DNA from: Bacteroidota bacterium
Lineage (GTDB): Bacteria; Bacteroidota; Ignavibacteria; UBA10030
DNA length: 41,629 nucleotides
Direction: 5' to 3'
Assembly (NCBI GenBank): GCA_050008835.1
Contig: JBEKLV010000002.1
Coordinates: forward strand, 1-41,629
Positions 2,738 through 34,168 of this stretch are shown here, piece after piece (position 1 is the first letter of the stretch; every line of letters begins with the position of its first letter). The notes beneath the pieces were generated by a model that was not told where the DNA came from, searched no databases, and saw nothing but the letters and a program-made list of their open reading frames with translations. The translations under genes and the position numbers were made by a program.

Positions 2738-3892
2738 ATGAGTCAGAATCCAAAGCATATTGCTATCCTTGGTTCGACCGGCTCTATTGGCCGGAATTGT
2801 CTTTCGGTTATTCATAATCTTTCAGACAGATTCAGTATTACCTACCTTACTACTAACACCAACATCGAGCTGCTCCAAAACCAGATTGCGCATTTCCACC
2901 CGCGCGGTGTTGTAGTGTTAGACGAAACCAAAGCTGCAGCGTTGCAGTCAATAGTTGGTACTTCGGTAGAAGTGCTTACCGGCCACGAAGGATTGCTGGA
3001 AATTGTACACCGGGACGATGTCGATCTTGTCATTAATTCAATTGTTGGGTTTGCCGGGTTGAAACCGACCGTCGAGGCAATCAAACATCGAAAACACATT
3101 GCACTTGCAAACAAAGAAACACTTGTCGTTGCCGGGGAACTTATTATTTCATTAGTCAAAGAATATGGAGTAACTCTTGTCCCGATCGATAGTGAGCACA
3201 GTGCTATTTTACAATGCCTCGTCGGCGAAGATCAAAACAGCGCGAGCAGGATTATCCTAACGGCATCCGGTGGACCACTTTTAAATACGCCTAAAGATGC
3301 ATTCGCATCTATTACGGTCGAACAAGCATTGAATCACCCTAATTGGAAAATGGGAAATAAGATTACGATCGACTCTGCCACGTTGATGAACAAGGGGTTG
3401 GAAGTGATTGAAGCCCACTGGTTATTCAACATACCAACAGAACGCATCGACGTTGTGATTCACCCGCAATCTATTATTCATTCGATGGTAGAGTTCGTGG
3501 ATGGTTCCATAAAAGCGCAGCTTGGCGTGCCGGACATGAAGCTTCCAATTCAATATGCATTAACATATCCAAAGCGGTGTCCGATGAGAGAGAGCCGTGT
3601 AGATTTTCCAAAGTTGCAATCGATGACATTTTTCGCGCCTGATCTCAATAAATTTCGCTGCCTTCAATTGGCATACGACGCAATGGCATTAGGCGGAACT
3701 GCTCCTGCCGTTATGAATGCTGCTAACGAAATTGCAGTGCAAGCTTTTTTAGAGAAGAAAATTTCATTTGACAGAATTCCAGAATTAATTGAACGGGCGC
3801 TTGCCAAACAAACAAACCATGTCTCGCCCGATCTTGAACATACATTTCAAAGCGATCATAATACGCGGGAGTATGTCCGAACTTTATTATAA
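2738..3892 (+). CDS. dxr: 1-deoxy-D-xylulose 5-phosphate reductoisomerase
   Basis: N-terminal ILGSTGSIGRN NADPH-binding motif, plus LANKE, DSEHSA and NHPNWKMG motifs. The 384-aa length is typical, and the gene sits upstream of rseP as in many bacteria. Confidence 0.95.
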   Translation: MSQNPKHIAILGSTGSIGRNCLSVIHNLSDRFSITYLTTNTNIELLQNQIAHFHPRGVVVLDETKAAALQSIVGTSVEVLTGHEGLLEIVHRDDVDLVINSIVGFAGLKPTVEAIKHRKHIALANKETLVVAGELIISLVKEYGVTLVPIDSEHSAILQCLVGEDQNSASRIILTASGGPLLNTPKDAFASITVEQALNHPNWKMGNKITIDSATLMNKGLEVIEAHWLFNIPTERIDVVIHPQSIIHSMVEFVDGSIKAQLGVPDMKLPIQYALTYPKRCPMRESRVDFPKLQSMTFFAPDLNKFRCLQLAYDAMALGGTAPAVMNAANEIAVQAFLEKKISFDRIPELIERALAKQTNHVSPDLEHTFQSDHNTREYVRTLL

Positions 3893-3932
3893 CCTGCAGC
3901 GATAAAAAGTTAGTAAATGGTGAATTAAACTT

Positions 3933-5246
3933 ATGGCGATATTAAGTACGATATTCTATTTTATCATAACTATTGGTATTCTCGTTTTAGTACACGAACT
4001 CGGGCATTTTCTTGCCGCTAAATTTTTTAAGATGCGTGTTGATACTTTCAGTTTAGGTTTTCCACCGCGTGCATTTGGCAAAAAAATTGGCGAGACCGAT
4101 TACTGTATATCATGGATTCCTATTGGTGGATACGTGAAGATTGCCGGTATGATTGACGAAAGCTTCGATACAGAATTTTTAAATAAAGAACCGCAACCGT
4201 GGGAATTTCGTTCGAAACCGATATGGCAGCGTATGATCGTTATTTCCGCCGGTGTTATTATGAATCTTCTACTTGCTGTTTTTATTTTTTGGGGAATTAT
4301 TTTTCACGAAGGTAAGACGATTCGTCCGGTGACAGAAATCGGGTATGTAGCGCAAAATAGTACTGCAGCAAAATCTGGGTTGCACGTTGGCGATAAAATC
4401 GTTTCCATCAACAGTCATCCTGTGAAACAGTGGGATGAAATCGAAAGCACGATTTATACTGAATCGATGGCAAATGATTTAAATATACAGGTGAATCGTT
4501 CTGACACAATTAGTAATATTTTGATACGTCGTTCAGAACTACCGGATATTACCGAAGAGCGATTTGGCATTCTTCCGTCAGGTCTCATGTCGGTTGTTAC
4601 GCTTGTAGACCACGGAAAGCCCGCCGAACAGATCGGTTTGCAGCCCGGAGATACACTTCTTGCGGTCAACCAAGTGCCTGTGAGCTTTGGTTCGCTGCAA
4701 GAAGCAATTCGATCAAATGCTGGTAAAGAAATCTTATTGTCTTGGGCGCGAGGAGAGCGGAAAATGAACGCACGTGTAAAGCCGACCTCCGAAGGACGCA
4801 TCGGAATTGCTTTAGAGGGCGCATATCAGGGACCAATAATTCACGAGCATTATTCCTTATTAGAGGCTCTTCCGATTGGTCTCGGAGAATTGAAAACAAC
4901 AAGCATTCTCTTTCTTTCCAATCTATATCAACTGGCAGCGGGAAAAGCTTCACTAAGCAAATCGATGGGTGGACCTATAAAAATAGCTCAGTTGGCAAAA
5001 CGGTCTGCTGACAATGGCATATTAGAGTTCTTTGGATTTATTGGCTTATTAAGTATCAGTCTTGCTTTACTGAACATCCTTCCTTTTCCTGCACTCGATG
5101 GCGGACATCTTGTTTTTCTGATATATGAAGCTGTGTTTAGGCGTGAAGTACCAAGCAAAGTAAAAATTGCCCTTCAGCAAGCAGGATTTATATTGCTGCT
5201 TGTATTTATGGCGTTCGTTCTTTATAATGATGTCATAAATTTTTAA
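3933..5246 (+). CDS. rseP: RIP (site-2) zinc metalloprotease RseP
   Basis: HELGHF motif in the first TM helix, central PDZ-like segments (GDKIVSIN, GDTLLAVN), and a C-terminal NILPFPALDGGH motif. Confidence 0.9.
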   Translation: MAILSTIFYFIITIGILVLVHELGHFLAAKFFKMRVDTFSLGFPPRAFGKKIGETDYCISWIPIGGYVKIAGMIDESFDTEFLNKEPQPWEFRSKPIWQRMIVISAGVIMNLLLAVFIFWGIIFHEGKTIRPVTEIGYVAQNSTAAKSGLHVGDKIVSINSHPVKQWDEIESTIYTESMANDLNIQVNRSDTISNILIRRSELPDITEERFGILPSGLMSVVTLVDHGKPAEQIGLQPGDTLLAVNQVPVSFGSLQEAIRSNAGKEILLSWARGERKMNARVKPTSEGRIGIALEGAYQGPIIHEHYSLLEALPIGLGELKTTSILFLSNLYQLAAGKASLSKSMGGPIKIAQLAKRSADNGILEFFGFIGLLSISLALLNILPFPALDGGHLVFLIYEAVFRREVPSKVKIALQQAGFILLLVFMAFVLYNDVINF

Positions 5247-5337
5247 ATCCTCCTTGTGTGATAGTTATCAACGTATTTTATTGCTCCGTCGCCTATAATG
5301 AGTGCATAAAACAAACAATACAAAGGAGTTACGCACC

Positions 5338-6504
5338 ATGAAATGGACTATGAATAAGATCGCACTAAGCGGCATCGTTCTTCTTGCCATTGTGCTGAGT
5401 TGTTCGACTGCCTTTGCTCAAAACAATTCCGTAAAAGCATCTCTGGATTTTCAGATGTACGATGTCATCTATCTTACTGATTTTGTTGATATTAAAAATC
5501 AGCAGTTGAACCCGAATATTTCCGGGATTTCTCTTAGTATGTCCTCGACAAGCACAACTCCGCCAAAGGAATTATTGGTTTGTGTTTATGTTGAATTACA
5601 TGTCCAGCTTCGTGGTGAGGCCGATCAGGAATTGATGCATTTGTACACAAATAATTTTGATATGATTAAAAACCCAGTGCTTGCTGCGAATAATTTTGCA
5701 AAAGGTGGCAGTGGTAATATATATATCCGAGACGGTTTGAATACTTATGTTGAGAACGGATCACTTCGCCAGCGTTTAGAAGATATGGCTGCGAAAAATC
5801 CAACAGCACCACCGGGTAAGTATTCTATTATTATGCAAGTACTTACTTATCCGTCCATCAAATTGACTGATAGGGGTGTCCCAACTAATGTTCAAGTTTT
5901 AGGTCAAGACGCCAAAACGGTCACAGTTCAATTCTCAACCGCAGATGAAGTGTTTGTTGAGATTAATGATCCAAAAAACGGCAGTTTTTTCAACAATCTT
6001 GCTCCGACATTTAGCTGGACAACAGGCGAATCAAATGTAACGGTTTCTGTTTATGAAGCGTTACCTACACAGCGATCTCCTCAGGATGCATTAACAGGTG
6101 GAAATCCATGTTTAGTGCGTACTGTGACTGGTCAAACATCACTCACTTATCCTTCCGATGCTCAACGGCAGCTTGCACAAAACAAATCATACGTTCTCCA
6201 GGTACAAGCGATAGTCTCTACGAATCGTGGAAATGTGATGCAATCAAGTCTTCCGATCGTTTTTCGCATCTCCGATGACAAAGTTGGGCAAATGCTAGAT
6301 AACTTCTTAAATGCACTCAGCGGTTCTGCTTCTGCAACGTATTCAACACTTCGAGCAGATCCAAACAACTGGATTGCATGGTCACCGTATGGAAACATCA
6401 CACTTGATGGTAGCACATTGACAGAAACCGATTTGCAAAGTCTTGTCAATGATCTCGCAAGCCGTTCCGACTTAACAATTCAACTTGGTGTTGAAAACCA
6501 ATAA
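5338..6504 (+). CDS. Hypothetical secreted protein, first gene of the FecR/OMP/CHASE2 cluster
   Basis: The ATG at 5338 is preceded by AAAGGAG at about 5321-5327. Signal peptide MKWTMNKIALSGIVLLAIVLSCSTAFAQ. I recognise no family. The GTG at 5302 in the ORF track is a less likely start. Confidence 0.5.
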   Translation: MKWTMNKIALSGIVLLAIVLSCSTAFAQNNSVKASLDFQMYDVIYLTDFVDIKNQQLNPNISGISLSMSSTSTTPPKELLVCVYVELHVQLRGEADQELMHLYTNNFDMIKNPVLAANNFAKGGSGNIYIRDGLNTYVENGSLRQRLEDMAAKNPTAPPGKYSIIMQVLTYPSIKLTDRGVPTNVQVLGQDAKTVTVQFSTADEVFVEINDPKNGSFFNNLAPTFSWTTGESNVTVSVYEALPTQRSPQDALTGGNPCLVRTVTGQTSLTYPSDAQRQLAQNKSYVLQVQAIVSTNRGNVMQSSLPIVFRISDDKVGQMLDNFLNALSGSASATYSTLRADPNNWIAWSPYGNITLDGSTLTETDLQSLVNDLASRSDLTIQLGVENQ

Positions 6505-6522
6505 ACGCTTAAGGAGAAAGCC

Positions 6523-8217
6523 ATGAAGAATAAGATCGTCATTATCTGTGTATTGGTTCTCCTTGGTGTACTTTCACTGGGGCAAAAAACACAACAGGAC
6601 AAGAAAGATATTTCAGCTTACATTGTGAAAGTTATCAGGGATGTGAACATGAAATCACCTACAACAGGATGGCAAAAGGCGGTCCCTTTAAGCAAATTAA
6701 AATCTGGCTATGAAGTACAAACCGATAAAGGATCTTTAGCATTGATTCTTTTCGCAGATCAATCGAAGCTGATTCTCCGCGAAAAATCTATTGTGACCAT
6801 CAAGGGAGAAGTACAAGGAAAAGAAATTCTCAGCCGAAGCGTCCATATGGATCGTGGAAATATGATTTTTAATGTGAAGAAAGCTGAAACTGAACAATTT
6901 CGGTTTTCTTCTCCCATTTCTGTTGCATCTATTCGCGGCACTGAGGGTGGCTATAACACCGGAGGCAATGCAGACTATTTTACTATTTCTAGGGGTCTTG
7001 CAGATTTTACGAACTCGATCTCCGGCCGTTCCACACATGTTAGCACCGGAAATACCGCAGTCGCTGATAGCTCAGGGGGTCTGAATCTTCGCAAAGCAAG
7101 TAAAAAAGAACTCGATAATATTGCAAGCGGAGCTGCAGAAGGTGGTGGACAAGGTTCGACAACAAAAACTAAGAATGTTGTAATCGACGGAACGATCGGA
7201 TTTAATCCGACTCCCACGGCTGGCAATGCGACAACCGCTAAGTTAGACTTGAGTCCGACTGATACTGTTATTTCCGGTGTGAATTTCTTCTATCGCACAA
7301 AAGGCACTACAGCGTTCACACAAGTTGCAATGGCGATGGATGGCAAAATTGCATCGGTTGAAATTCCAGCTGCTCAGGTCGCAAGTCCGGCAATGGAATA
7401 TTATTTTGCAATTACGATTGGAACTCGTACTCTTACTCTGCCTTCGGGAGGTGCAGGCACACCGGGTTCGGTGTCAGTTGCTAAAGCGGTCTCTTCTGCC
7501 GCCGGCGGGCCTGTTACAATTACCGCAACGCCGGTTTTTAGTCCGTCGCCAGTTCGTTCGTTTACGAATATCCAGTCGACTCTCGATCTTTCTTCTGTCA
7601 CTGCAAAGCTGAATACTATCACACTCAAATACCGTCGCGGTGGTGATGCAGCATTCAAATCATTGGCACTTACTCTTTCCAACAAGGTTGCAACCGGCAC
7701 GGTGCCAGGTGTTGATGTCCGTGCACCGGAACTTGAATACTATTTCGTGGTAAAGCTGGCAGATTCATTAAATACAGAGGTTACGCTTCCCAGCGATGGT
7801 GCTTCGAATCCTATGTCAATAACTGTTCCCTCGTTGACTAGGATTGTTCCGCAATTTGGTCCGTTGAAATCAAAGAGTTCTGGGTCAGTCAGTGTAGACT
7901 TTTCTTCGCTTCAAGCAAATGTCACGGCCGTCAGTCTCTTTTATCATAAACAGAATGAGCCCACGTTTACGGAATTGATACTCACCACATCCGGTCAAGT
8001 AGCTACTGGTCAAATACCTGCGGAAAGGGTCCGATACCCGAAATTGGAATATTATACATCTCTTCGATTTGACGATGGATCAACGCTCATTGTACCGCAA
8101 GATGGTCCATCCAATCCGATGGCGACATCGGTACAGGCGATTCAGCGTGAACTTCGCATCCCAGGCCAGACTGGATCATTACAGAAAAAAGTTCTCGTCT
8201 TAAAATGGAGTGAATAA
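6523..8217 (+). CDS. Secreted FecR-domain protein with three tandem C-terminal repeat domains
   Basis: RBS AAGGAG lies upstream and a signal peptide is present. Residues about 30-135 resemble a FecR sensor domain (GWQKAVPLSKLKSGYEVQTDKGSLALILFADQSKLILREKSIVTI). Three repeats of about 105 aa follow, each ending in P-x-[LM]-EYY ... LP-x-[DG]G ... P-[GM]-S-[IV]-[ST]-V. Confidence 0.6.
   Translation: MKNKIVIICVLVLLGVLSLGQKTQQDKKDISAYIVKVIRDVNMKSPTTGWQKAVPLSKLKSGYEVQTDKGSLALILFADQSKLILREKSIVTIKGEVQGKEILSRSVHMDRGNMIFNVKKAETEQFRFSSPISVASIRGTEGGYNTGGNADYFTISRGLADFTNSISGRSTHVSTGNTAVADSSGGLNLRKASKKELDNIASGAAEGGGQGSTTKTKNVVIDGTIGFNPTPTAGNATTAKLDLSPTDTVISGVNFFYRTKGTTAFTQVAMAMDGKIASVEIPAAQVASPAMEYYFAITIGTRTLTLPSGGAGTPGSVSVAKAVSSAAGGPVTITATPVFSPSPVRSFTNIQSTLDLSSVTAKLNTITLKYRRGGDAAFKSLALTLSNKVATGTVPGVDVRAPELEYYFVVKLADSLNTEVTLPSDGASNPMSITVPSLTRIVPQFGPLKSKSSGSVSVDFSSLQANVTAVSLFYHKQNEPTFTELILTTSGQVATGQIPAERVRYPKLEYYTSLRFDDGSTLIVPQDGPSNPMATSVQAIQRELRIPGQTGSLQKKVLVLKWSE
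7177..8150 (+). repeat. Three tandem protein-level repeats (about 105-113 aa each) inside the FecR-domain gene
   Basis: The EYY cores lie at nt 7396-7407 (MEYYF), 7735-7746 (LEYYF) and 8047-8055 (LEYY). Spacing is 113 and 104 codons. The similarity is at protein level, not nucleotide level. Confidence 0.7.
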
Positions 8218-8270
8218 TCTGACACGGTGTAAATTTGTGTCTTGCATCATATAATTGCTTTTGATACATT

Positions 8271-8304
8271 GGACGGCGGGTGGGAAGTATACACCCGTCG
8301 TTTT
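8271..8304 (+). terminator. Hairpin plus T-run between the FecR-domain gene and the barrel gene (possible partial terminator or attenuator)
   Basis: ggacggcgggtg (8271-8282) pairs with cacccgtcgttt (8292-8303), including G-U pairs. The loop is 9 nt and the stem runs into a tttt tract. Confidence 0.4.
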
Positions 8305-8361
8305 ATGTTATCCTGTAGGCACCATCGACAATTGCTAAATGTTCCTAACGAGGGGATTCCT

Positions 8362-10920
8362 ATGAAACGCATCCACCAAGACGCAATTCTGTTGTCAATT
8401 CTTCTCACTGCCCTACTTTTTTCCAACACAATTGGACAAGTGAGTCAATACGTTGTTGATGTTAAAGTACCACCGGCTTCTCAGCAAACACCATTATCGA
8501 TCAGTGTCGAGATGACACAGAACGTCCAAATTCAACGGGTGGTGCTCAACTATCGTCAATTTGGCGAAACAGAATATAAAGAACTCGAGATGCTTCTTGC
8601 CGGCCGAACTGCCGTTGCTGCGTTACCAGCCGATGCTGTTATGCCTCCCTATATCGAGTACTATATCAAGTTTCAACTTGCAGATAATACACAAGCAACA
8701 TATCCATCAGAAAATCCTGAAGTCAATCCAATCAAGATTGCAGTAAGGGGAGTGGATCCGAAAGACGCAGAAGTTCGTATACTTAGCCCGGAACCCGGAG
8801 AGACCTTAGCTGCAGAAGATTTGGCAATTGCTATATCATTGATGTTTGTTTCTGATGCAGTCGATAAACAACGAACACGTATCTACCTTGATGGCGCTGA
8901 TGTAACAAAAGAAGCTTTGCTCTCTGACGATGTTATCCTATACAGCCCGAAGAATTTTAACAAACCCCTGAATTTAGGAACACATTCCATTAAGATTGAA
9001 TTGGTGGACACAAAGGGACAGATCTACTATACGAAACAAACAGACTTCAATCTTTCTACAGCTGCTGCTATAGAAGAAGAGAAAAGCTCGTTACAATATA
9101 TGGGCAATGCTCAACTCGAGTTACGGAATGAAAAAATAGATGTCACAAATACATCTTACCAGCGCGCAGATGTTCGTCTTAATGGCACATATAAATTTCT
9201 TACTTTTGGGTACGACATGCACCTGACGAATGAAAACACAGACGACCGTCAGCCGCAAAACCGTTTCCTTGCTACATTGCAGGCGGCAGATTATGCAAAA
9301 GTTCAGGTTGGTGATGCGTACCCGGCGTTCCCGTCGCTGATGATTAGTGGAAAGCGTGTGCGCGGTGTTACAGGTGGGCTGACATTAGGTTTCTTCAACC
9401 TTGATGCTTCTTACGGTCAGACTGAACGCTTTATTGAAGGTACATTAGGCGGACCGGTTTATTATCCCGATTCTTCTACGGCATCAGCTCGCCCGAAAGA
9501 AACAATTTTTCAGGGGCGCGGCGGCTATAATAGCATTACAGGTATGGACACATTGATTTATCGGACATATACAAATGGAACATACAACCGAAAATTTTTA
9601 GCTGTCCGCCCAAGTTTTGGCAGCGGCGAAAATTTCCAGCTTGGTTTTAGTTTAATCAAAGCTACAGATGATACAAATTCCATCAAGTATGGTAATTATC
9701 CAGCTGATAATTTTGTGGGAGGTACCGATCTCCTGATCGCATTTGATAATCAGAGATTTAAGTGGACAACGCAGGTAGCGTTCAGCCTTAATAACACCGA
9801 TATTACAGGCGGGAATTATTCTGACGCTGATTTTAAGCAATATAAATTGTCAAGTTTATCAAGTACAGCGACAGCCGACGATTCAGCAAAAGCATTAAAA
9901 GATGCGCAGGATTTAATTAATCTTGCAAAATTGGGTCGCAACTTTATTATCGTAAATCCTAACATGTCGCCACTTGATCCTACGAGCGGATTTCCATCGT
10001 TAGCTGTTGAATCTGAATTGATATTGAACTATTTCAATAATTATATCAGGGCTCTGGCATTCCGACGCGGCGCAAATTACACATCGTTTGGGAATGAATA
10101 TGTTCAAACAGATATCGCTGGTTTGAATCTTTCTGACCGCATTCGATTGTTTGATAACAGGGCAATGACAAGTTTTTCGTACGAGACGAAGTGGAATAAC
10201 ATTAAGAACGATAATACCAAACCACGAACAACGTTCAACACCTTCAATGGATCGGTGACAGCTTACCCGGGTGTGAATCTGCCTACCTTGACTGTCGGTT
10301 ATGGTTTCAACACGCGAAAGAATCCAATTCAGCTTCATCTGGACACTGTTTTGATAGCTATGGCAGATACTGCATTTCCATCAACAAAATTGGATTCATC
10401 AAACTGTGCAGATGAGAAAACTAATCGTTTCTTCTTCGCAGCAAATTATGACTTTAACCTTTTTGCACATCAGAGCTTGAGTGCAACCGTAAGCATAGCT
10501 AATAAAGTAGATAATACATTTAATTTGCGCAATCAGGATAACGTAACTGCCGCTGCCTCCCTAACAACAGTCTATAGAATACCGCTGCAAACAACAATAG
10601 CTGTTATTGTGAGTCATAATGCCACATATTCTGCGATGCAAGATTCAGTAACGAAACAATATCTTAGCACAACAAATAAACAAGCGTTCGATTATCAAAC
10701 AATTTCGTTTAGCGCGCGGTACCGATTATTTAATGAGCGGCTCAATATCCTTGCAACGTTGGCACCTTCTTATGGTGATTTCAAACGGTTCTTGATACAA
10801 GGCGGTATAGATTATCAAGTGATGGACAACCATTATATTGTTGGCCAGGTTGAAGTAATTCAAAATCCAAGTAAAAATAACGACGTTATTGCAAGTATTA
10901 TATATCGATTTAATTTCTAA
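8362..10920 (+). CDS. Large outer-membrane beta-barrel protein with an N-terminal copy of the EYY repeat domain
   Basis: The ATG at 8362 follows GAGGGGA. Signal peptide MKRIHQDAILLSILLTALLFS. The N-terminal domain carries PPYIEYYIKF...YPSENPEVNPIKIAV. About 600 aa of alternating amphipathic strands follow, and the C-terminus ...IIYRFNF looks like an OMP beta-signal. I saw no TonB box or plug. Confidence 0.6.
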   Translation: MKRIHQDAILLSILLTALLFSNTIGQVSQYVVDVKVPPASQQTPLSISVEMTQNVQIQRVVLNYRQFGETEYKELEMLLAGRTAVAALPADAVMPPYIEYYIKFQLADNTQATYPSENPEVNPIKIAVRGVDPKDAEVRILSPEPGETLAAEDLAIAISLMFVSDAVDKQRTRIYLDGADVTKEALLSDDVILYSPKNFNKPLNLGTHSIKIELVDTKGQIYYTKQTDFNLSTAAAIEEEKSSLQYMGNAQLELRNEKIDVTNTSYQRADVRLNGTYKFLTFGYDMHLTNENTDDRQPQNRFLATLQAADYAKVQVGDAYPAFPSLMISGKRVRGVTGGLTLGFFNLDASYGQTERFIEGTLGGPVYYPDSSTASARPKETIFQGRGGYNSITGMDTLIYRTYTNGTYNRKFLAVRPSFGSGENFQLGFSLIKATDDTNSIKYGNYPADNFVGGTDLLIAFDNQRFKWTTQVAFSLNNTDITGGNYSDADFKQYKLSSLSSTATADDSAKALKDAQDLINLAKLGRNFIIVNPNMSPLDPTSGFPSLAVESELILNYFNNYIRALAFRRGANYTSFGNEYVQTDIAGLNLSDRIRLFDNRAMTSFSYETKWNNIKNDNTKPRTTFNTFNGSVTAYPGVNLPTLTVGYGFNTRKNPIQLHLDTVLIAMADTAFPSTKLDSSNCADEKTNRFFFAANYDFNLFAHQSLSATVSIANKVDNTFNLRNQDNVTAAASLTTVYRIPLQTTIAVIVSHNATYSAMQDSVTKQYLSTTNKQAFDYQTISFSARYRLFNERLNILATLAPSYGDFKRFLIQGGIDYQVMDNHYIVGQVEVIQNPSKNNDVIASIIYRFNF

Positions 10921-10943
10921 TAAATTACGCATTGTTTGTTACT

Positions 10944-10981
10944 TCCCGCTTCTTTCCATCGTAAATGAGAAGCGGGATTAT
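10944..10981 (+). terminator. Stem-loop after the barrel gene
   Basis: Perfect 10-bp stem: tcccgcttct (10944-10953) with agaagcggga (10968-10977). The loop is 14 nt and the trailing T tract is weak. Confidence 0.45.
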
Positions 10982-11013
10982 TCCTCTCGCTCACCTCAAA
11001 AGGAATCAGAATT

Positions 11014-13221
11014 ATGACTTCCTATGAATTCAAAAGAAAAATATTGCCGCTCCTTGTGAAGCTGTCAATCGGTATCGGCATAGGCGTCTTCGTCATTATC
11101 ATCGGACAAGGATGGCTCTTCGAGCTGAACTTTCTAAAGAATATCGATTTGTTGACAATTGATCTACGCTACCAAAGCAGATACGAACGTACCGAGCAGA
11201 CACGCGATCTACAGAAAGACGGCGACATTGTTATCATCGGCATATCGGATGATGATCGAAAAGCACTCATTGATCCTTTTCCTTTCCCTCGTTCGTACTA
11301 TGCACATATCGTTGAAAACCTTGAACACGCTGGTGCCCGCGTTATCGTCTTTGATATAACCATGGACGATTCCAGTAAAGTCGCTGTGAACGATAGCCTC
11401 CTGCGCCAAACATTGCAAAAGTATAACAACATCGTTATTGCAACAACGGTTGGGTATACACAATCGAATAAATTTGCGGAGGTACGAGCCACTGAACCAA
11501 CTTATGATAATCAGTTCTATGGCGTTGATAAAAATATCGGTGCAACAAACATCATCAAAGATCGTGACGATGTGTGCCGATCATATCTGCCTTTGTTGGA
11601 AATAAAGGGATGGGGCACACCAACGCTCGCTTTTGCTGCTCTTAACAGATATTTCAAACTTAAACCTGGTACGTTGGTCGATTTCAGTAATGAAAAATAT
11701 TTTCTGTTGAAGGATAGGAACATTCCCCGCAACGGTACCACCTTTATGCTTAGTTACTACGGCCCAAGCGGAACTTTCCGCTATATCCCTTTTTCACAGG
11801 TTATCGATGACTCAACATTCCAAACAAAAGATGAAGCAGAGATGGGTGAACCCATTAATGCATTCGATGCCAGTACAATTGCGTTGCTGAAGAATAAGAT
11901 TGTTCTTATTGGTTCAGTCATGCCCGAGGAGCATGATTATCACAATGTGCCTTTGTATAAAGAAGAGGGTGGAAAAAAGAATTATGCAATGAACGGTGTG
12001 GAAATCCATGCAACAGCCATTCAGAACGTTATCGACAAGAACTTCATCACGACAGCTGATCCTGCAATCGAAAACATTGTTATAATTTTTCTCTCGCTCA
12101 TCGGCTTCTTCGGCATGCTCTCATTGAAACAGATCCACATTAAGCATATGTGGCTGCTGGAAATCGGAGCATTTCTTTTAACCATAGTTCTCGTTGGTGC
12201 AGTGTTCGAAGCTTCCATAATTGTGTTTAGTAATAATAATGTATTAATGAATGTTGTTAATCCAAGTCTTGCCATTGTATTCGCATATTTCGGCACAGCT
12301 GTTTATCAATACTTGACCGAACGACAGCAAAAAGCCGTTATTAAAAATATGTTCGGCCATTATATTAATCCTGCTGTAGTGAACGAATTGGTTACAAATC
12401 CAGAGAAGGCAAAGCTCGGCGGCGATCGCCGCGAACTGACAGTGTTCTTCACCGATATAGCCAGCTTCACAAGTATCTCGGAGCAATACCATGCTAAACC
12501 TGAAGGATTGGTGGCACTGCTTAACGAATACTTAGATGAGATGACGCGCATTGTGCTTAAGTATGAAGGAACGCTAGACAAATATGAAGGTGACGCGATT
12601 ATGGCATTCTGGGGCGCACCGCTTCCGCAAAAAGATCATGCGCTTCGGACATGTCTTGCAGCATTAGAGATGCAGAAACGTCTGCAAGTACTCAGACCAA
12701 AATGGATAAAGGAAGGCAAACCTCCTCTCTTTGTGCGGATGGGTGTCAACACTGGCATCGTGATTGTCGGCAACATGGGCGGCCGAGACAGGTTTGACTA
12801 CACCGTTATCGGCGACAGTGTAAACCTTGCTTCACGACTTGAAGGCGCCAATAAACAATACAAATCGAATATTATGATCAGCGAATTTACCTATACGCAT
12901 GTAAAGAGCAAGGTTGTTGTACGAGAACTTGATTTGATTCAAGTGAAAGGCAAGACAGAACCAGTTAAGGTGTACGAACTACTCGGTACCGCGGACATGG
13001 AGATGACCGAAAACCAGAAACAGGCGTTGGAAATGTATCATGAGGGATTAAAATTGTACCGTGCAAGGAAATGGGAAGAAGCGATTGCTTATATGCAGCA
13101 GGCATATACATTAGACGAGACCTGTTTTGTTGCACAGATGTATACAGAGCGTGCAAACTTGTATCAAATTACTCCGCCACCGGCTGAATGGAACGGCGTT
13201 TTTGTAATGACGACAAAGTAA
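11014..13221 (+). CDS. CHASE2 sensor-domain class III adenylate/guanylate cyclase
   Basis: One N-terminal TM helix, a periplasmic region of about 300 aa, then three TM helices, which is the CHASE2 topology. The cyclase domain contains ELTVFFTDIASFTSISE, KYEGDAIMAFWGAP and VIGDSVNLASRLEG. The C-terminal tail is TPR-like. Confidence 0.85.
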   Translation: MTSYEFKRKILPLLVKLSIGIGIGVFVIIIGQGWLFELNFLKNIDLLTIDLRYQSRYERTEQTRDLQKDGDIVIIGISDDDRKALIDPFPFPRSYYAHIVENLEHAGARVIVFDITMDDSSKVAVNDSLLRQTLQKYNNIVIATTVGYTQSNKFAEVRATEPTYDNQFYGVDKNIGATNIIKDRDDVCRSYLPLLEIKGWGTPTLAFAALNRYFKLKPGTLVDFSNEKYFLLKDRNIPRNGTTFMLSYYGPSGTFRYIPFSQVIDDSTFQTKDEAEMGEPINAFDASTIALLKNKIVLIGSVMPEEHDYHNVPLYKEEGGKKNYAMNGVEIHATAIQNVIDKNFITTADPAIENIVIIFLSLIGFFGMLSLKQIHIKHMWLLEIGAFLLTIVLVGAVFEASIIVFSNNNVLMNVVNPSLAIVFAYFGTAVYQYLTERQQKAVIKNMFGHYINPAVVNELVTNPEKAKLGGDRRELTVFFTDIASFTSISEQYHAKPEGLVALLNEYLDEMTRIVLKYEGTLDKYEGDAIMAFWGAPLPQKDHALRTCLAALEMQKRLQVLRPKWIKEGKPPLFVRMGVNTGIVIVGNMGGRDRFDYTVIGDSVNLASRLEGANKQYKSNIMISEFTYTHVKSKVVVRELDLIQVKGKTEPVKVYELLGTADMEMTENQKQALEMYHEGLKLYRARKWEEAIAYMQQAYTLDETCFVAQMYTERANLYQITPPPAEWNGVFVMTTK

Positions 13222-13260
13222 TTAAGTTTTGAGTCGCTGAGTAAATGAGTAATAAAAACG

Positions 13261-13295
13261 AAGCCCGATTCTGTGGTTATGGAATCGGGCTTTTA
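13261..13295. terminator. Bidirectional intrinsic terminator between convergent cyclase and malic enzyme genes
   Basis: Perfect 11-bp stem: aagcccgattc (13261-13271) with gaatcgggctt (13282-13292). It is flanked by an A-run upstream and ttt downstream. Confidence 0.8.
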
Positions 13296-13373
13296 GGTTT
13301 ATGAACCACAAATGCTGTTTGTTTTATCTTAGCAAAACAAGTTTTATTGTTTCTATGAATAAAACAGTCGGCT

Positions 13374-21371: not shown

Positions 21372-22871
21372 ATGAAGCGCATTTTCCCGCCAGCATTTTA
21401 TAATTTGCGGACACTGATCGGAGCGGCCATTGCATCGGTGAGCTTCGGACTTGTGCTCTTCTTGACTGTCCTTGATCTGTTTGAAGGAGAGCAGAAACCC
21501 TACATAGGCATTCTTACATATATTATTCTTCCGATATTCATGCTCTTTGGACTTATGCTTGTGTTCTATGGTATTTGGCGTGAGCACAGACGTGAGAAAC
21601 AAGGACTGCCACAAGATCTCAAATTACCACGTATTGATTTGAATGATCCAAAGCAACGGAATGCATTCTTTTGGTTTTCACTTGGTGCATTGCTGCTCTT
21701 ACTCTTCTCAGCCTTCGGCAGTTTCAAAGCTTACGAGTATACCGATTCCGATGAATTCTGTGGAACTATGTGTCATAAAGTTATGGAGCCGGAATATACG
21801 GCTTATAACAGTTCACCACATGCGCATGTCGGTTGTGCAAAATGCCACATTGGTCCCGGCGCTGGATGGTTTGTACGCTCTAAGCTTTCAGGTGCATATC
21901 AGGTGTATTCCACTATCTTCAATAAATATTCACGCCCTATTGCTACGCCGATCGAGAATCTTCGCCCAGCGCAAGAAACATGCGAGCAATGTCATTGGCC
22001 GAAGCATTTCTTTAGCGAGATGCGTGTATCAAAATTGTATTTTCTTTCTGATGAGGCAAATACGCGATGGAATTTGGTTCTACTTATCAAAGTTGGGGGG
22101 GGAAACGAAGAAACCGGACTTTCGGGAGGTATTCATTGGAACATGAATATTGCAAATGCAATTACGTACACACCGGCAGATAGACAGCGGCAGATCATTC
22201 CATGGATTAAAGTAAAAAGTAAAAAGGATGGAACTGAGCATATCTATTGCAACCTTGAAAATCCTATCACCGAAGATTCGTTAGCGTTGTTAGAAAAACG
22301 TACGATGGATTGCATCGATTGTCATAATCGTCCCTCGCACATCTATCATCCCCCGGTACCGACGGTAGATCATATTATATCGGCTGGATTGATAGATTCA
22401 AAGTTACCATACGCGAAAAGCATTGCTGTCAAAGCACTTGATCAAACATATTCTTCATCAGATATCGCACGGGATAGTATCCGGCTTGTAATTGAAGAAT
22501 ATTACAAAACTAGTTATCCGCAAATTGCTTCAGAAAAAAACGCGGCAATTAGTCAGATAGTTTCAACAGTCCAAAAATTTTATGCACGAAATTATTTTCC
22601 GACAATGGCTGTCACATGGCGACATTTTCCAAATAATATTGGCCACCTTTTTTATAAAGGTTGTTTCCGATGCCATGATAATAAACATATTAGAGAGGAT
22701 GGAAAAGTCCTAACGAACGAATGTTCTGTTTGTCATACAATTCTTGCTCAGAGTTTTGGAAAAGAAAAAAACAGTGTTTCGCTGGATGGTGTCCCATACC
22801 AACATCCTGTGGACATTGGAGATTCATGGAAGGAAATGAATTGTAGTGATTGCCATACTGCAGAAGAGTAG
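21372..22871 (+). CDS. Membrane-anchored heptaheme c-type cytochrome with a NapC/NirT-like quinol dehydrogenase module
   Basis: Three N-terminal hydrophobic segments and seven CXXCH motifs (CGTMCH, CAKCH, CEQCH, CIDCH, CFRCH, CSVCH, CSDCH). EFCGTMCHKVMEPEYTAYNSSPHAHVGCAKCHIGPG resembles the NapC/NirT/NrfH N-terminus. Confidence 0.8.
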   Translation: MKRIFPPAFYNLRTLIGAAIASVSFGLVLFLTVLDLFEGEQKPYIGILTYIILPIFMLFGLMLVFYGIWREHRREKQGLPQDLKLPRIDLNDPKQRNAFFWFSLGALLLLLFSAFGSFKAYEYTDSDEFCGTMCHKVMEPEYTAYNSSPHAHVGCAKCHIGPGAGWFVRSKLSGAYQVYSTIFNKYSRPIATPIENLRPAQETCEQCHWPKHFFSEMRVSKLYFLSDEANTRWNLVLLIKVGGGNEETGLSGGIHWNMNIANAITYTPADRQRQIIPWIKVKSKKDGTEHIYCNLENPITEDSLALLEKRTMDCIDCHNRPSHIYHPPVPTVDHIISAGLIDSKLPYAKSIAVKALDQTYSSSDIARDSIRLVIEEYYKTSYPQIASEKNAAISQIVSTVQKFYARNYFPTMAVTWRHFPNNIGHLFYKGCFRCHDNKHIREDGKVLTNECSVCHTILAQSFGKEKNSVSLDGVPYQHPVDIGDSWKEMNCSDCHTAEE

Positions 22872-23114
22872 TTAAAGTTGGTTTTATGAACGATAATAAT
22901 TAGGTAAGAATTACAACCCAAGAAAAATTATATGTATATTAGATTGTGGCAGCTTAATGGATTTTAGATTGATAATTTCAACAAGTGTCATTGCTGTATT
23001 GATAATATCATGATAATTGTATATGTCGGTTCTTAAACGTAGATAAAAACAACACTTTTCATGATAAGCTAAAAGCGTTATCAATTATTAACTCAATAAT
23101 AAGGAGCGTTTCAT

Positions 23115-23633
23115 ATGCAGAAGACGATTTCATTTCTTCTTGCGGCTTTGGTCCTGTTTTCATTTTCCACGCTTGCTCAAAATAAGTATGTTGGAGCTAA
23201 AATGTGTGGTATGTGCCATAAAGGTGAAAAGAAGGGTGCACAATTTGAAATTTGGCAAAAGAGTAACCACGCCGAAGCTTATAAAACTTTAACCGAAGCT
23301 AAAGCAGCCGAAATTACTAAGGCAAGGGGATTGAAAAAAGCGGCAAATGAATCACCTGAATGCCTCGAGTGCCATGCCATTACAGCTGATGCCAAGCTCA
23401 CTGTCGATGGAGTGCAATGTGAAACTTGCCACGGTGCGGGTTCAGCATACAAGGCTTTTTCCATTATGAAAGATAAAGCAAAAGCAATTACTGCGGGCTT
23501 AACGGAATTCAAAGATAAGGGAGCGATTGAAAAAAAATGCAAGACATGCCACAACGAGAAAAGTCCATCCTATAAGCCCTTTAAGTTTGATGAAATGTGG
23601 GTAAAGATTAAGCATCCAATTCCAAAAGGATAA
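23115..23633 (+). CDS. Periplasmic tetraheme c-type cytochrome (c554-like family)
   Basis: RBS AAGGAG and signal peptide ending FSTLAQ. Four CXXCH motifs (CGMCH, CLECH, CETCH, CKTCH) occur within 172 aa. Confidence 0.8.
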   Translation: MQKTISFLLAALVLFSFSTLAQNKYVGAKMCGMCHKGEKKGAQFEIWQKSNHAEAYKTLTEAKAAEITKARGLKKAANESPECLECHAITADAKLTVDGVQCETCHGAGSAYKAFSIMKDKAKAITAGLTEFKDKGAIEKKCKTCHNEKSPSYKPFKFDEMWVKIKHPIPKG

Positions 23634-23743
23634 TAATTATAATAAATTTTCTAGTTGTTTGAGCAGGCGTCTCGGCAATAATAAAATGAGACGCTCGATT
23701 ATTTGCGTTTAGCATTTTCGCAATCATATATAACAGACAACCA

Positions 23744-25042
23744 ATGAAATATTTAATGCAGCGCAGCATTTTGATAATTTTGGCGATGCTTATTTTTCTT
23801 TTCTGCAAAACATCGGCACAATTTCTCCAATTGCGACTTATTTCTTCCGCCTCTGCGTGGCAGCAACGAGATACTATAGGTCAATCATCCAACCACCTGT
23901 TCGGATACCAGACAGTACAACTCTCGCTAGCAGGTGAGCATCTCTCGTTTCATACATATCTGCAGGGATCTAACGATTTTGCTGGTCCGTTGAAGAACGA
24001 AAGTACAGTTCGATTCTATAATTTTTATTTGAATTATTTAAATCTATTTGAAACAATCGATTTCAGTCTCGGTCGTCAAGCGATCTTCGCAGGTGTCGGC
24101 AACGGCACAATCGATGGCGGTGTTGCTTCAATTCGATTGTTAGATTCAAGGTTAAAAGTGCTCGGCTATTATGGAGCTTTGCCATCTACTGGACAAAAGT
24201 TTGAAATGATTGGTGATCAAAAAGATAATAATATGTTTGGTGCTCAAATTATTAGTACACCGTCAGATTTTGCCCGTGTATCATTGAGCTATATGCAGAA
24301 AAACATCAAACCGGAAACATACTGGGCGCTCAGAAAAGACTCCCTTTTCAATCCCGTTATAACAGAGATCTCTCCAAGTGCGATGGCAGAACAATACGTA
24401 AGCGGCGATGTAAGCATTGACTACAACATAATCTCTGCATATGCGAGAAGTGATTTCGATTTAAATCAAGAAAATATTTCGCGCATTCAATTCTTCACAC
24501 GGGTGAAGCTAACAGAACCGCTTTCACTGACAGGTGAATATATCCATCGCGAACCGCGTCTCTTATATAATTCTATTTTCTGGGTGTTTGCTTACAATAC
24601 AATCAGTGAATACGAACTGGGCGCAGAATATGCTATCTGCAAAGACTGGCAAGTATTTGGGAAGTTCGGTTCCATTTCATACGGTGATGATAATTCCGAT
24701 CAAGTGACACTTGGTTACAATATAAAGTACGCCTCGGCAAGTTTTAGCTGGAACACCGGTTATGGCGGAGAATTAGCAGCGTTTTCTGTAAATGCTGGTT
24801 ATCCCCTTTTCGATTATAAACTTACACCAACTATTACAGTTGGATATGCACATTACAAGTTGAATAGCAATGCGCCAATATCAGATGCTTTAAGCAGTGC
24901 GATTGGAGCTGTGTACCGACCAATTCCGGTACTTTCGTTAGATGCACAGGTTCAGTGGATTCAAAATAAAATTTATAGTGACGATGTACGCCTCTTTTTA
25001 CGAGGCAGTTACTATTTAGGCGAACATTTGACATTTTTTTAA
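23744..25042 (+). CDS. Outer-membrane beta-barrel (porin-like) protein embedded in the cytochrome cluster
   Basis: Signal peptide ending CKTSAQ. Amphipathic alternating strands rich in Y/G/S/N run throughout. The terminal ...GEHLTFF has an aromatic beta-signal. There are no CXXCH motifs. Confidence 0.6.
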   Translation: MKYLMQRSILIILAMLIFLFCKTSAQFLQLRLISSASAWQQRDTIGQSSNHLFGYQTVQLSLAGEHLSFHTYLQGSNDFAGPLKNESTVRFYNFYLNYLNLFETIDFSLGRQAIFAGVGNGTIDGGVASIRLLDSRLKVLGYYGALPSTGQKFEMIGDQKDNNMFGAQIISTPSDFARVSLSYMQKNIKPETYWALRKDSLFNPVITEISPSAMAEQYVSGDVSIDYNIISAYARSDFDLNQENISRIQFFTRVKLTEPLSLTGEYIHREPRLLYNSIFWVFAYNTISEYELGAEYAICKDWQVFGKFGSISYGDDNSDQVTLGYNIKYASASFSWNTGYGGELAAFSVNAGYPLFDYKLTPTITVGYAHYKLNSNAPISDALSSAIGAVYRPIPVLSLDAQVQWIQNKIYSDDVRLFLRGSYYLGEHLTFF

Positions 25043-25049
25043 GATTACC

Positions 25050-26288
25050 ATGCAAACAAATCGAAAGAACACATCAATTATTCTGAAGCATGGATTTCTT
25101 TTCATAAGTTTGATGCTGACATTGCTTCTTACCTTCACCGGTGCAGTGGTACTACGTGAACAAATCGTCAGTGATAAGCAGCCGAAGCGTGTAAAATTTT
25201 CTCATCAATTTCATGTCACCGAAGCCGGCATCGCCTGTATAGATTGCCATACAGATGTAGCAAAGAGCACCAAAGCATCCGACAATCTTCTTGCGAAGAT
25301 GGAAGCTTGCAAGAGCTGCCACGAAGAACCGTTGAAAAGCAATTGCACCTATTGCCATCTGAATTCGGATTCTACGAAATATACAGCGACACCAAATCCT
25401 ATTCGCGAACTGATGTTTTCACATCAACAGCATGTGGAAGATCAAAAAGTAACATGCGAAACATGTCACACTATTCTCGATAAAGCTGATGCTGCAACCG
25501 GAGAACTTGTACCTGCAATGGCAACATGCAACTCTTGCCACAACGATACGAAAGCAACAACTGCATGTGAAAAGTGCCATACCGATTTTGCATCGCTGCG
25601 TCCTATAGAGCACAATCGTACAAATTTTATCCATGAACATAAACGATTAGCACGACTCGGTGATGCCAAGTGCGGCGTTTGCCACTCGCAAGAAACTTGC
25701 ATCGATTGTCACAACGGATCGGAATTAATAAAAGTAGATGTGCTGGGACGTGATCTTACATCACAACGATCGCCACGTCTCACAGCAATCGATCGAGGAC
25801 AAGAAATGTGTTTGACAAAAATACACGATTTAAATTTCCGCTTTACACATGGTATTGCCGCAAAAGGCAAATCGATGGAATGTCAAACGTGCCACAATTC
25901 AGAAAAATATTGCTCAACATGTCATGAAGCTGGAGGCAATATAAATCAAGGTGCGTTCAAGCCGGCATCGCATGCTGTAGCCGGATTTACAACACTAGGG
26001 GTTGGAAGCAGTGGCGGCGAACATGCACGCTTGGCAAGACGTGATATTGAGTCGTGTGCAGCCTGCCACGGTGCAGAGGGTGCCGATCCAGTGTGTATCA
26101 CTTGCCATGTCGATCCCGATGGAATAAAAGGTAATGATCCGAAAACGCATGACCCCGGCTTTATGTCCAATACGCACGGGCCCTGGCATTTTGATCCCGG
26201 CGCCAATTGCTATATGTGCCACACAGATGTCAACGCACATCCGGGCGGAGTTAAAGGACAAAAATTCTGCGGTTATTGCCACCGATAA
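25050..26288 (+). CDS. 14-heme c-type cytochrome
   Basis: Fourteen CXXCH motifs were counted in 412 aa, with a single N-terminal hydrophobic segment. The start codon is 7 nt after the porin stop codon. Confidence 0.85.
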   Translation: MQTNRKNTSIILKHGFLFISLMLTLLLTFTGAVVLREQIVSDKQPKRVKFSHQFHVTEAGIACIDCHTDVAKSTKASDNLLAKMEACKSCHEEPLKSNCTYCHLNSDSTKYTATPNPIRELMFSHQQHVEDQKVTCETCHTILDKADAATGELVPAMATCNSCHNDTKATTACEKCHTDFASLRPIEHNRTNFIHEHKRLARLGDAKCGVCHSQETCIDCHNGSELIKVDVLGRDLTSQRSPRLTAIDRGQEMCLTKIHDLNFRFTHGIAAKGKSMECQTCHNSEKYCSTCHEAGGNINQGAFKPASHAVAGFTTLGVGSSGGEHARLARRDIESCAACHGAEGADPVCITCHVDPDGIKGNDPKTHDPGFMSNTHGPWHFDPGANCYMCHTDVNAHPGGVKGQKFCGYCHR

Positions 26289-26303
26289 TGGGATGGCTTG
26301 ATT

Positions 26304-27164
26304 ATGAAGAAGCAGCGTATCATTCTAATTTTGATGCTATTGATAATATCAGCGCTTCTAATTTCATGCAGTGATTTGAAAAATAGTCTACCGACAGCAA
26401 TAAGTGCTGAAGTACAGATTCATGGACAAGGATGGATCGATACCGGTTCTGTAAATTTCCATGGCAAGTATATTCAAAACATTAATTACAATCTTACTAT
26501 TTGCAAGCAGTGTCATGGAAGCAATTATGAGGGTGGCACATCAAACAGTTCATGCCGGCCATGTCATTCAGGACCCGGTGGACCAGAAAATTGTGCTACG
26601 TGCCATGGCATACCTCCTGCACCGGATCGTTATGGAAATACTTCCTTTACTGCCCCAGGGGTTGGGGCACATAATATACATTATACAGGAACAGGAACAA
26701 TTTCCGCATTAGCGATGCATTGTGATGATTGCCATCATTTGCCCAACGGGGTTTCTGACACGACACATATCACCGCAACGGGAATTGCACAAGTACAGAT
26801 AAGTAACTTAGGCGCGCTGCAAACAAATGGAGCTGTTCCATCAACTTCGTTTAGCCAATTAACTTTAAAATGCACCAATACATTTTGTCATGGTAATTGG
26901 ACATTACCGAAATCTGGATTGGCAAGCGATTCGGTCTTTTCAGGTACGGTGATGACAGGCGTTTTAGCAAATGCCCCAGTCTGGAACGGCGGATCTAGTC
27001 AAGCTGTTTGCGGTTCATGTCATGGTTTACCACCAGCAGGCCATTATTCCTATTCACAAAGTTGTACCGCGTGTCATGAAGATGTTACAACGGCTTCTGG
27101 AAAACTAAAGCATATGAATGGAAAAATCGACCTTGCTGGTGGAGTGGTGCGAAACTTCCGATAA
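26304..27164 (+). CDS. Lipoprotein multiheme cytochrome (6 CXXCH plus 1 CX4CH)
   Basis: Lipobox LISC. CXXCH motifs: CKQCH, CRPCH, CATCH, CDDCH, CGSCH, CTACH. CTNTFCH lies at nt 26871-26891. CHG-x-PP spacing recalls the Geobacter CxxxxCH...CXXCH domain. Confidence 0.8.
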   Translation: MKKQRIILILMLLIISALLISCSDLKNSLPTAISAEVQIHGQGWIDTGSVNFHGKYIQNINYNLTICKQCHGSNYEGGTSNSSCRPCHSGPGGPENCATCHGIPPAPDRYGNTSFTAPGVGAHNIHYTGTGTISALAMHCDDCHHLPNGVSDTTHITATGIAQVQISNLGALQTNGAVPSTSFSQLTLKCTNTFCHGNWTLPKSGLASDSVFSGTVMTGVLANAPVWNGGSSQAVCGSCHGLPPAGHYSYSQSCTACHEDVTTASGKLKHMNGKIDLAGGVVRNFR

Positions 27165-27261
27165 AAGTATTTTTTGAAGATAATATTATCTTAAAGAGTC
27201 TATTGAAATAGAATAGTATATATAAACAATTAAATTTTAACCTTTAATAAAAAGGTGCTAT

Positions 27262-28536: not shown

Positions 28537-28574
28537 GGTCTGAAGAGAAGCTTCAGATGTCAAGTATTTTATGT

Positions 28575-28608
28575 GTGCGGGAGTGTAGGTTTCCCGCACT
28601 TTTGTTTT
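28575..28608 (+). terminator. Intrinsic terminator after the cytochrome genes
   Basis: gtgcggga (28575-28582) pairs with tcccgcac (28592-28599), followed by ttttgtttt. Confidence 0.7.
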
Positions 28609-28709
28609 CAATCAAATCCCTGCTTCGGTGAAGCCTTGATCTTCAATTCTGTGTTGTATTTCGAGGAGTGATTGTTTATAATCGTATATATTCGATAAAA
28701 GGAATATAT

Positions 28710-34099: not shown

Positions 34100-34168
34100 T
34101 TTATTATTGAATAAAGATAACAAAAAAACTGAAAAGAAGAATCTGTTTTTTGAATCAATATATAGAAG

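Follow-up and report, generated by a model that had tools for sequence, protein, structure and literature searches.

The CHASE2 domain was named more than 20 years ago. Its stimulus is still called unknown (PMC5192318), in line with the initial annotation of the locus described here, which had held that no CHASE2 ligand is established in the literature (our coverage of recent CHASE2 work is perhaps incomplete). We asked what might act upstream of one such receptor, encoded in a 41,629-nucleotide (nt) stretch of DNA, hereafter the window, from a Bacteroidota bacterium of the Ignavibacteria (lineage UBA10030, assembly GCA_050008835.1, contig JBEKLV010000002.1). Four co-directional open reading frames (ORFs) on the + strand, spanning positions 5338-13221 with short gaps between them, encode a secreted protein of no known family (g1), a secreted FecR-domain protein (g2), a predicted outer-membrane barrel (g3), and a CHASE2 receptor with a putative adenylate cyclase output (g4); their coordinates (Table 1) bear out the four same-strand genes first annotated. 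We consider it moderately probable that this cassette is a TonB-independent and sigma-factor-independent signalling unit that would carry information from the cell surface to the cytoplasm, with cyclic AMP (cAMP) as its output.

Conservation of the cassette across phyla

With one genome scanned per species, 61 loci were recovered with g3 identities of 37-88%, all in metagenome-assembled genomes (MAGs) of the Ignavibacteria lineage; the counts that follow for this group take in only loci with room for the neighbouring gene. The CHASE2 cyclase gene lay directly downstream of the barrel gene at every locus (57/57), and a FecR gene lay upstream of the barrel at 55 of 56, the exception (L064) being a contig-end fragment. 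A g1-family gene, recognized with a g1 hidden Markov model (HMM), was present at all loci but one (L043; 53 loci matched). Upstream of g1, rseP was found at 48/48 loci, and dxr and a gene encoding a tetratricopeptide repeat (TPR) protein recurred at most of them. Because dxr and rseP are fixed upstream in Ignavibacteria, inheritance alone could explain the synteny within that group, and shared ancestry could suffice there for the whole order dxr-rseP-g1-g2-g3-g4.

More distant loci were found with the most distant listed barrel representative (P0388) as query, its relatives being 22-47% identical to it. Eight such loci (L066-L073) came from Calditrichaeota, candidate division KSB1, Balneolaceae, and unnamed metagenome contigs. 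All eight encoded, on one strand and in the same order, a FecR protein of 216-291 amino acids (aa), a barrel of 722-1036 aa, and a protein of 697-853 aa with CHASE2 and cyclase domains. At seven of them the first position was held by a protein of ~385-410 aa without a Pfam match, while the remaining locus (L072) had a shorter, 722-aa barrel and two small ORFs in the g1 position. The g1 HMM matched the first cassette gene at all six distant loci tested (E 5e-18 to 3e-5). The flanks of the distant loci were unrelated to those in the window, with dxr and rseP absent from all eight. Retention of cassette content and order while the surroundings change across phyla points to a functional unit rather than to inherited gene order, and on the strength of this gene order we take the four genes to be one such unit. 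A chance arrangement was rejected, given the recurrence of the cassette at 57/57 Ignavibacteria and 8/8 distant loci. The association of barrel, FecR, and CHASE2 genes proposed in the initial annotation therefore reaches well outside this genome, and it also takes in g1.

The recurrence of rseP bears on another possibility, namely that the products of g1, g2, and g3 build an outer-membrane assembly with a structural or export role, and that g4 senses the correct building or loading of that assembly rather than an external ligand, adjusting cAMP to report on envelope stress or biogenesis. RseP, a site-2 protease of envelope-stress pathways, processes FecR in Escherichia coli. Its gene precedes the cassette at every Ignavibacteria locus with room for it, the opposite strand encodes a conserved secreted TPR protein close by, and the g3 barrel resembles sheath or translocon barrels. 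However, rseP and dxr do not accompany the cassette at any of the distant loci, no gene for an exported substrate is conserved in it, and g2 offers RseP neither a transmembrane nor an anti-sigma part to cleave. Envelope monitoring of this kind therefore seems to us improbable. A functional link to rseP was rejected as a feature of the cassette itself (48/48 Ignavibacteria loci but 0/8 distant loci, and no membrane segment in g2 to cut).

Domains and predicted folds of the four proteins

The inner-membrane CHASE2 class III cyclase of the initial annotation was upheld by profile searches of g4, which matched CHASE2 (PF05226, E=5.7e-45) and Guanylate_cyc (PF00211, E=1.9e-24). Hydrophobic segments comprised one transmembrane segment before CHASE2 (residues 13-31) and a transmembrane cluster after it (345-405), so that CHASE2 lies between an N-terminal transmembrane segment and a C-terminal transmembrane cluster, as is characteristic of CHASE2 receptors. 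The predicted order was a first transmembrane segment, a periplasmic CHASE2 domain, three transmembrane helices, the class III cyclase domain, and a C-terminal helical or TPR-like tail, for which the TPR_2 match was weak and below the cut-off. The best match in the PDB was the catalytic domain of Pseudomonas aeruginosa CyaB (E=2e-45), and the CHASE2 part matched no solved structure in a PDB sequence search. Catalytic residues were present in g4 as Asp (FTDI, GDA), Lys (DKYEGD/DKYEGDA), Thr (DYTVIGD), and Asn/Arg (NLASRLE) (DYTVIGDSVNLASRLE). As in class III cyclases, we take these to be the two metal-binding Asp residues, the substrate-specifying Lys and Thr, and the transition-state Asn and Arg. 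Lys and Thr at the substrate-specifying positions suggest an adenylate cyclase, and the Guanylate_cyc domain points to an output that is probably a cyclic nucleotide rather than a sigma factor, as initially put forward.

The FecR domain of g2, first assigned from the sequence alone, passed profile search (PF04773, E=3.2e-8, 34.4 bits vs. a gathering cut-off of 24), and two FecR-domain lipoproteins of Leptospira, Lsa33 and LipL45, show weak similarity to the protein. The C-terminal half of g2 consists of three repeats (Table 1), each of which matches residues 37-148 of g3, its first N-terminal domain (E 1e-6 to 1e-10). In this lineage g2 has thus acquired three copies of the g3 N-terminal domain, and the presence of g3-type domains on g2 is consistent with the two proteins belonging to a shared periplasmic assembly. 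The shorter g2 orthologues at the distant loci carry FecR only, and the domain scored above the Pfam cut-off in all seven that were tested (E 1e-6 to 2e-15, 29.5-57.3 bits). Profile scans and hydrophobicity revealed no anti-sigma domain in g2 and no membrane segment beyond the signal-like hydrophobic helix that it shares, at the N-terminus, with g1 and g3.

For g3, no Pfam or NCBIfam family was matched even at E ≤5, and no PDB sequence was found. An AlphaFold2 model (predicted local distance difference test, pLDDT, 81) showed a signal helix, two N-terminal beta-sandwich domains, and one large barrel, in agreement with the outer-membrane barrel of about 850 aa predicted at the outset. The standard topology of outer-membrane barrels places N-terminal domains of this type in the periplasm, and on this basis we place g3 in the outer membrane with its two beta-sandwich domains facing the periplasm. 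Against the PDB, Foldseek ranked MtrB first (6r2q_B, E=5e-10, template modelling score [TM-score] 0.33/0.41), followed by the PapC/FimD ushers, TonB-dependent transporters, and LptD; these were generic large barrels with low TM-scores, and no family was assigned from the fold search. More than 555 homologues of g3 were found, all unnamed and from Ignavibacteria and 'Bacteroidota' MAGs. A profile search extended the barrel family to 1791 representative clusters, and ten distant representatives of the family had no Pfam domains. In two giant proteins, P0380 (4022 aa) and P0384 (3470 aa), 18 stretches matched the g3 profile, the best-scoring stretch in each being the N-terminal 'EYY' beta-sandwich of g3, the domain that is repeated in g2. 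Judged by these matches, large surface proteins seem to make wide use of the 'EYY' domain as a repeat module, one that carries no annotation so far.

The initial description of g1 as a secreted protein of no known family was borne out by its signal helix and signal peptidase I site (AxA|Q), together with a lack of Pfam and NCBIfam matches even at E ≤5 and of any PDB sequence match; none of its 129 homologues carries a name. The AxA|Q site is conserved among homologues whereas the Cys of an 'LSC' motif is not, and g1 was therefore rejected as a lipoprotein. Its AlphaFold2 model (pLDDT 74) contained two beta-sandwich domains resembling immunoglobulin (Ig) or FN3 folds and a small C-terminal helical region, and a Foldseek search of this model returned solely Ig-like matches (antibody-like and FN3-like).

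These domain assignments allowed comparison with FecA-FecR-FecI cell-surface signalling. The cassette shares with it the logic of a path from outer to inner membrane by way of the periplasm, and it likewise has a FecR domain in the periplasm, the feature that would favour a classical Fec-type system here. In contrast, g3 matched neither Plug, TonB_dep_Rec, nor STN even at E ≤5 and has no plug, TonB box, or POTRA domain, and the cassette includes no TonB-dependent transducer. Nor is g2 a membrane-anchored anti-sigma factor, and no obvious proteolytic step is apparent. A profile scan of the window's ORFs of at least 150 aa, plus an 81-aa ferredoxin ORF, detected no extracytoplasmic function (ECF) sigma factor or other sigma-70 family protein, and the predicted output is a second messenger rather than transcription initiation. 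Profile scans and the g3 model thereby confirmed all of the differences from FecA-FecR-FecI that had been listed initially (the missing plug and TonB box, the missing ECF sigma factor, and the cyclic-nucleotide output). Inherited gene order is in turn excluded by the eight distant loci, at which the flanks differ and the cassette persists. Classical Fec-type signalling, or a gene order inherited without any functional link, thus strikes us as very improbable, even with a FecR domain present and the gene order fixed across Ignavibacteria.

Published FecR-CHASE2 systems and a possible signalling route

A barrel, a FecR domain, and a CHASE2 cyclase have been brought together before. In Sinorhizobium meliloti, a nodule signal (the candidate being non-ribosomal ribosomal protein uL2) is perceived via NsrA and the inner-membrane cyclases CyaK and CyaD1/D2 (PMC7529298), the cyclases being CHASE2-domain proteins (PMC13001267). 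NsrA is described as a receptor in the outer membrane whose barrel spans residues 600-1200, and it is genetically needed for signal perception by CyaK and for cAMP production (PMC7529298, PMC13001267). By gene retrieval and profile scan, we found that NsrA (1200 aa, encoded on pSymB) carries a FecR domain at residues 66-160 (E=2e-15) and TPR at ~378-587, ahead of the C-terminal region described as the barrel (PMC7529298), and that the nsrA stop codon overlaps the start of cyaK, which encodes CHASE2 and cyclase domains. The fusion of FecR to a barrel in NsrA, beside a CHASE2 cyclase, gives independent support for g2, g3, and g4 acting together. In both systems the gene for a CHASE2 class III adenylate cyclase is directly preceded, on the same strand, by coding sequence for a barrel and a periplasmic FecR domain, and both lack a TonB box, plug, or ECF sigma factor. 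The two differ in that FecR, TPR, and barrel are combined in the single NsrA protein, whereas FecR (g2) and barrel (g3) are separate genes here. Moreover, g3 has Ig-like periplasmic domains that NsrA does not, and g1 has no described counterpart in the NsrA system. The host in our case is also a free-living member of the Ignavibacteria lineage rather than a plant symbiont, so that the same signal (plant uL2 for NsrA) is unlikely.

Other published clusters pair FecR with CHASE2 in different contexts and, as independent cases of this adjacency, speak for the proposed unit; the cyaD1 neighbourhood of S. meliloti, described below, is one more of them (PMC5498481). A LysM-FecR gene adjoins a CHASE2 histidine kinase gene in Burkholderia and in P. 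aeruginosa (PMC5192318), and a cluster in Campylobacterota combines a CHASE2 cyclase with a FecR-domain outer-membrane protein, a TPR protein, and a phosphodiesterase (PMC9239204). Compared by published description, the Burkholderia 'BiofilmReg' and P. aeruginosa PA4035-like pairs resemble our cassette in encoding a secreted FecR-domain protein beside a CHASE2 receptor (PMC5192318), but they have a LysM-FecR protein, a histidine-kinase output, and no barrel. Profile scans of the cassette found no LysM match on g2, no response regulator, and a cyclase as the output domain of g4. The Campylobacterota cluster differs, again by published description, in its additional phosphodiesterase, and neither type has been described with a g1-like or g3-like protein. 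The statement in the initial annotation that FecR genes recur beside CHASE2 receptors is therefore sound (PMC5192318, PMC9239204). In adding that no mechanism has been established, it overlooked NsrA-CyaK, an experimentally supported precedent that makes the idea less new than was assumed.

Several observations weigh against a signalling route from g3 through g2 to g4. Neither g2 nor g3 contains the TPR region of NsrA (profile scan). Comparison of g3 with the NsrA barrel gave no significant BLASTP match, and hhalign of the g3 profile against NsrA residues 544-1200 gave a probability of 0.2%, NsrA having entered as a single sequence so that remote homology would still be compatible with this value. 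Elsewhere in S. meliloti, cyaD1 (SMc02176) lies near smc02177, which encodes a FecR domain, and near the periplasmic smc02178, both of which were dispensable for plant-signal perception (PMC5498481); caution is therefore due, as not every FecR neighbour need act upstream of the cyclase. Hairpins in the g2/g3 and g3/g4 gaps of this genome would also allow uncoupled expression. As no homology between the g3 and NsrA barrels was detectable, the parallel is one of architecture and not of descent, and on this comparison the cassette looks like a split-gene counterpart of NsrA-CyaK rather than a homologous copy.

In the route that we infer for the cassette, g3 would be inserted in the outer membrane by its barrel and extend its two Ig-like N-terminal domains into the periplasm, where the FecR-domain protein g2, perhaps with g1 as an accessory, would connect it with the CHASE2 domain of the inner-membrane cyclase g4. 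Binding of a ligand by the barrel at the cell surface, perhaps of a macromolecule, would alter these periplasmic contacts. The altered contacts would in turn switch the cytoplasmic class III cyclase domain of g4 and change cAMP levels, the signal passing in the direction barrel to FecR to CHASE2.

A different division of labour can be envisaged, in which g3 is an outer-membrane channel for a solute that g1 and g2 bind and present to CHASE2, the barrel relaying no conformational signal. The binding-protein-dependent sensors LuxP-LuxQ and TorT-TorS offer a model for such a conduit, and it would accommodate the very large g3 barrel without a plug domain, its fold neighbours among transport and translocation barrels (MtrB, ushers, TonB-dependent transporters, and LptD), and the predicted soluble, secreted nature of g1 and g2. 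However, g1 is built of Ig-like sandwiches and not of a periplasmic-binding-protein fold, and the two conserved periplasmic domains of g3, together with the g3-type domains on g2, suggest protein-protein contacts. The NsrA signal, uL2, is moreover a protein and not expected to diffuse through a channel (PMC7529298). We consider a solute conduit unlikely, and favour relay of a surface event through periplasmic protein contacts.

Transcription, genomic surroundings, and significance

Table 1. Positions of the cassette genes, their domains, and predicted RNA structures in the window.
Feature	Positions (nt)	Strand	Residues	Description
g1	5338..6504	+		Secreted 388-aa protein, first cassette gene
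g2	6523..8217	+		Secreted 564-aa FecR-domain protein
g2 FecR domain	6712-6954		64-144	PF04773
g2 repeat 1	7213-7446		231-308	g3-type domain
g2 repeat 2	7549-7827		343-435	g3-type domain
g2 repeat 3	7861-8172		447-550	g3-type domain
Hairpin, g2-g3 gap	8271..8304	+		12-bp stem, free energy ~-23 kcal/mol (RNAfold), then UUUUAUGUU
g3	8362..10920	+		852-aa outer-membrane protein (predicted)
g3 periplasmic beta-sandwich domain 1	8452-8748		31-129	AlphaFold2 prediction
g3 periplasmic beta-sandwich domain 2	8776-9057		139-232	AlphaFold2 prediction; weak Big_7 match
g3 barrel	9094-10914		245-851	~26-28 strands, taken from the DSSP string alone; helical insert 488-525; C-terminal ...YRFNF
Hairpin, g3-g4 gap	10944..10977	+		Free energy ~-18 kcal/mol (RNAfold), without U-run
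g4	11014..13221	+		735-aa receptor adenylate cyclase (predicted)
g4 CHASE2 domain	11116-12105		35-364	PF05226
g4 Guanylate_cyc domain	12433-12978		474-655	PF00211
Stem-loop after g4	13260..13300 (approx)			15-bp GC-rich stem and UUUU (RNAfold of 13222-13373)

The ATG starts of g1 and g3 agree with the N-termini of homologues, and longer ORFs from GTG or TTG codons at 5302 and 8242 were rejected as over-extensions. RNAfold recovered both hairpins reported initially in the gaps around g3 (Table 1). The first is terminator-like in having a U-run 3' of its stem and is possibly a partial terminator or attenuator, although a simple terminator scan did not call it. The stem-loop after g4 lies between g4 and a convergent malic-enzyme gene, is stronger than both internal hairpins, and likely marks where transcription of the unit ends.

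Gap lengths between g3 and g4 in related genomes form two classes, 6-33 nt in approximately half of the species and 48-171 nt (mostly ~90-150) in the rest. Relatives with gaps of at least 61 nt usually, though not always, have a strong hairpin of differing sequence, and such hairpins are practically absent where the gap is 6-33 nt. The short gaps imply co-transcription, as they leave no space for a terminator. The hairpins were thus rejected as an argument against an operon, and the view that they weaken the linkage between the genes did not hold, the barrel-cyclase gap being ≤33 nt in about half of related species. The simplest reading is a single operon in which internal stem-loops tune relative expression in some lineages. 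Directly upstream of the cassette in the window lie dxr and rseP (2738-5246, + strand), and the secreted 611-aa TPR protein is encoded on the - strand (781-2616). No terminator was evident between rseP and g1, and the cassette may be co-transcribed with the housekeeping genes dxr and rseP in the Ignavibacteria lineage.

The flanks of individual loci held further candidates for signalling components. At four of the distant loci (L066 13868-15529, L069 13638-15197, L070 9132-10706, and L073 14709-16298), a gene encoding Response_reg and PglZ domains lies 3' of the CHASE2 cyclase gene and is followed by tsaE, TsaD-family, acetyltransferase, and carboxyl-transferase genes, with surE in three of the four. 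Response_reg plus PglZ is the domain pair of the type IX secretion regulator PorX, and this neighbourhood may reflect lineage synteny or a downstream partner. Approximately 2 kb upstream of the variant cassette at L072, a mechanosensitive-channel protein with a cyclic nucleotide monophosphate (cNMP)-binding domain is encoded (4319-5881), which is possibly a local cAMP effector. In one Ignavibacteria relative (L003 13532-17387), a second FecR-domain protein (582 aa, weak match) is encoded just downstream of the cassette, adjoining a histidine kinase and a giant protein with PKD repeats, and FecR-domain partners may serve more than one type of sensor in such genomes.

Among barrels of known function, MtrB, LptD, and the PapC/FimD ushers are the best fold matches of g3, and fall into a similar size class; as a further point of resemblance, g3 has beta-rich periplasmic domains at its N-terminus. 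They differ from it in that TM-scores reach only 0.2-0.45 at ~10% identity, and g3 belongs to no Pfam family. Partner genes of these systems (decahaem cytochromes, LptE, and pilus genes) were not found adjacent in the cassette. Elsewhere in the window, a run of multihaem cytochrome genes (21372-30953, + strand) encodes NapC/NirT-like and c554-like proteins, two proteins with MtrC/MtrF domain II/IV matches, and a Geobacter-type CxxCH protein. Among these genes lies one for a 432-aa protein without a Pfam match (23744-25042), and a CcmF-like haem lyase gene follows the run. This region could be a porin-cytochrome cluster for extracellular electron transfer, with the 432-aa protein as candidate barrel. 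A further stretch (34001-36000) has a low GC content (0.35 vs. ~0.42 elsewhere), includes a DNA methylase gene (34284-35267), and may have been horizontally acquired.

A barrel/FecR/CHASE2-cyclase system (NsrA-CyaK) and the adjacency of FecR and CHASE2 genes were already known. What is new here is the split, four-gene form, which is conserved in Ignavibacteria, KSB1, Calditrichaeota, and Balneolaceae, together with the conserved g1 component and a large barrel family, as yet without annotation, that is linked to CHASE2 at every locus examined. Within the literature we covered, which perhaps omits some recent CHASE2 work, NsrA-CyaK is the only system found with a known upstream component of a CHASE2 receptor. 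The cassette is a cleaner version of it, in that FecR, barrel, and cyclase each reside on a protein of their own, of modest size and conserved across several phyla, which brings modelling of pairwise interactions, co-purification, and reconstitution within practical reach.

We tentatively raise a broader possibility, that the natural 'ligand' of many CHASE2 domains might be a protein partner rather than a small molecule, namely a periplasmic FecR domain coupling CHASE2 to an outer-membrane barrel. The cassette, NsrA-CyaK, and the Campylobacterota and Burkholderia clusters might then be variants of one widespread, unrecognised trans-envelope class. If true, this class would be independent of TonB and sigma factors, with interchangeable barrels and outputs, and the g3 family (~1800 unannotated sequence clusters) would represent a new family of outer-membrane receptors. 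The cassette also provides a working annotation for two large unannotated families (g1-like and g3-like), and cAMP signalling in Ignavibacteria, KSB1, and Calditrichaeota is probably driven from the cell surface.

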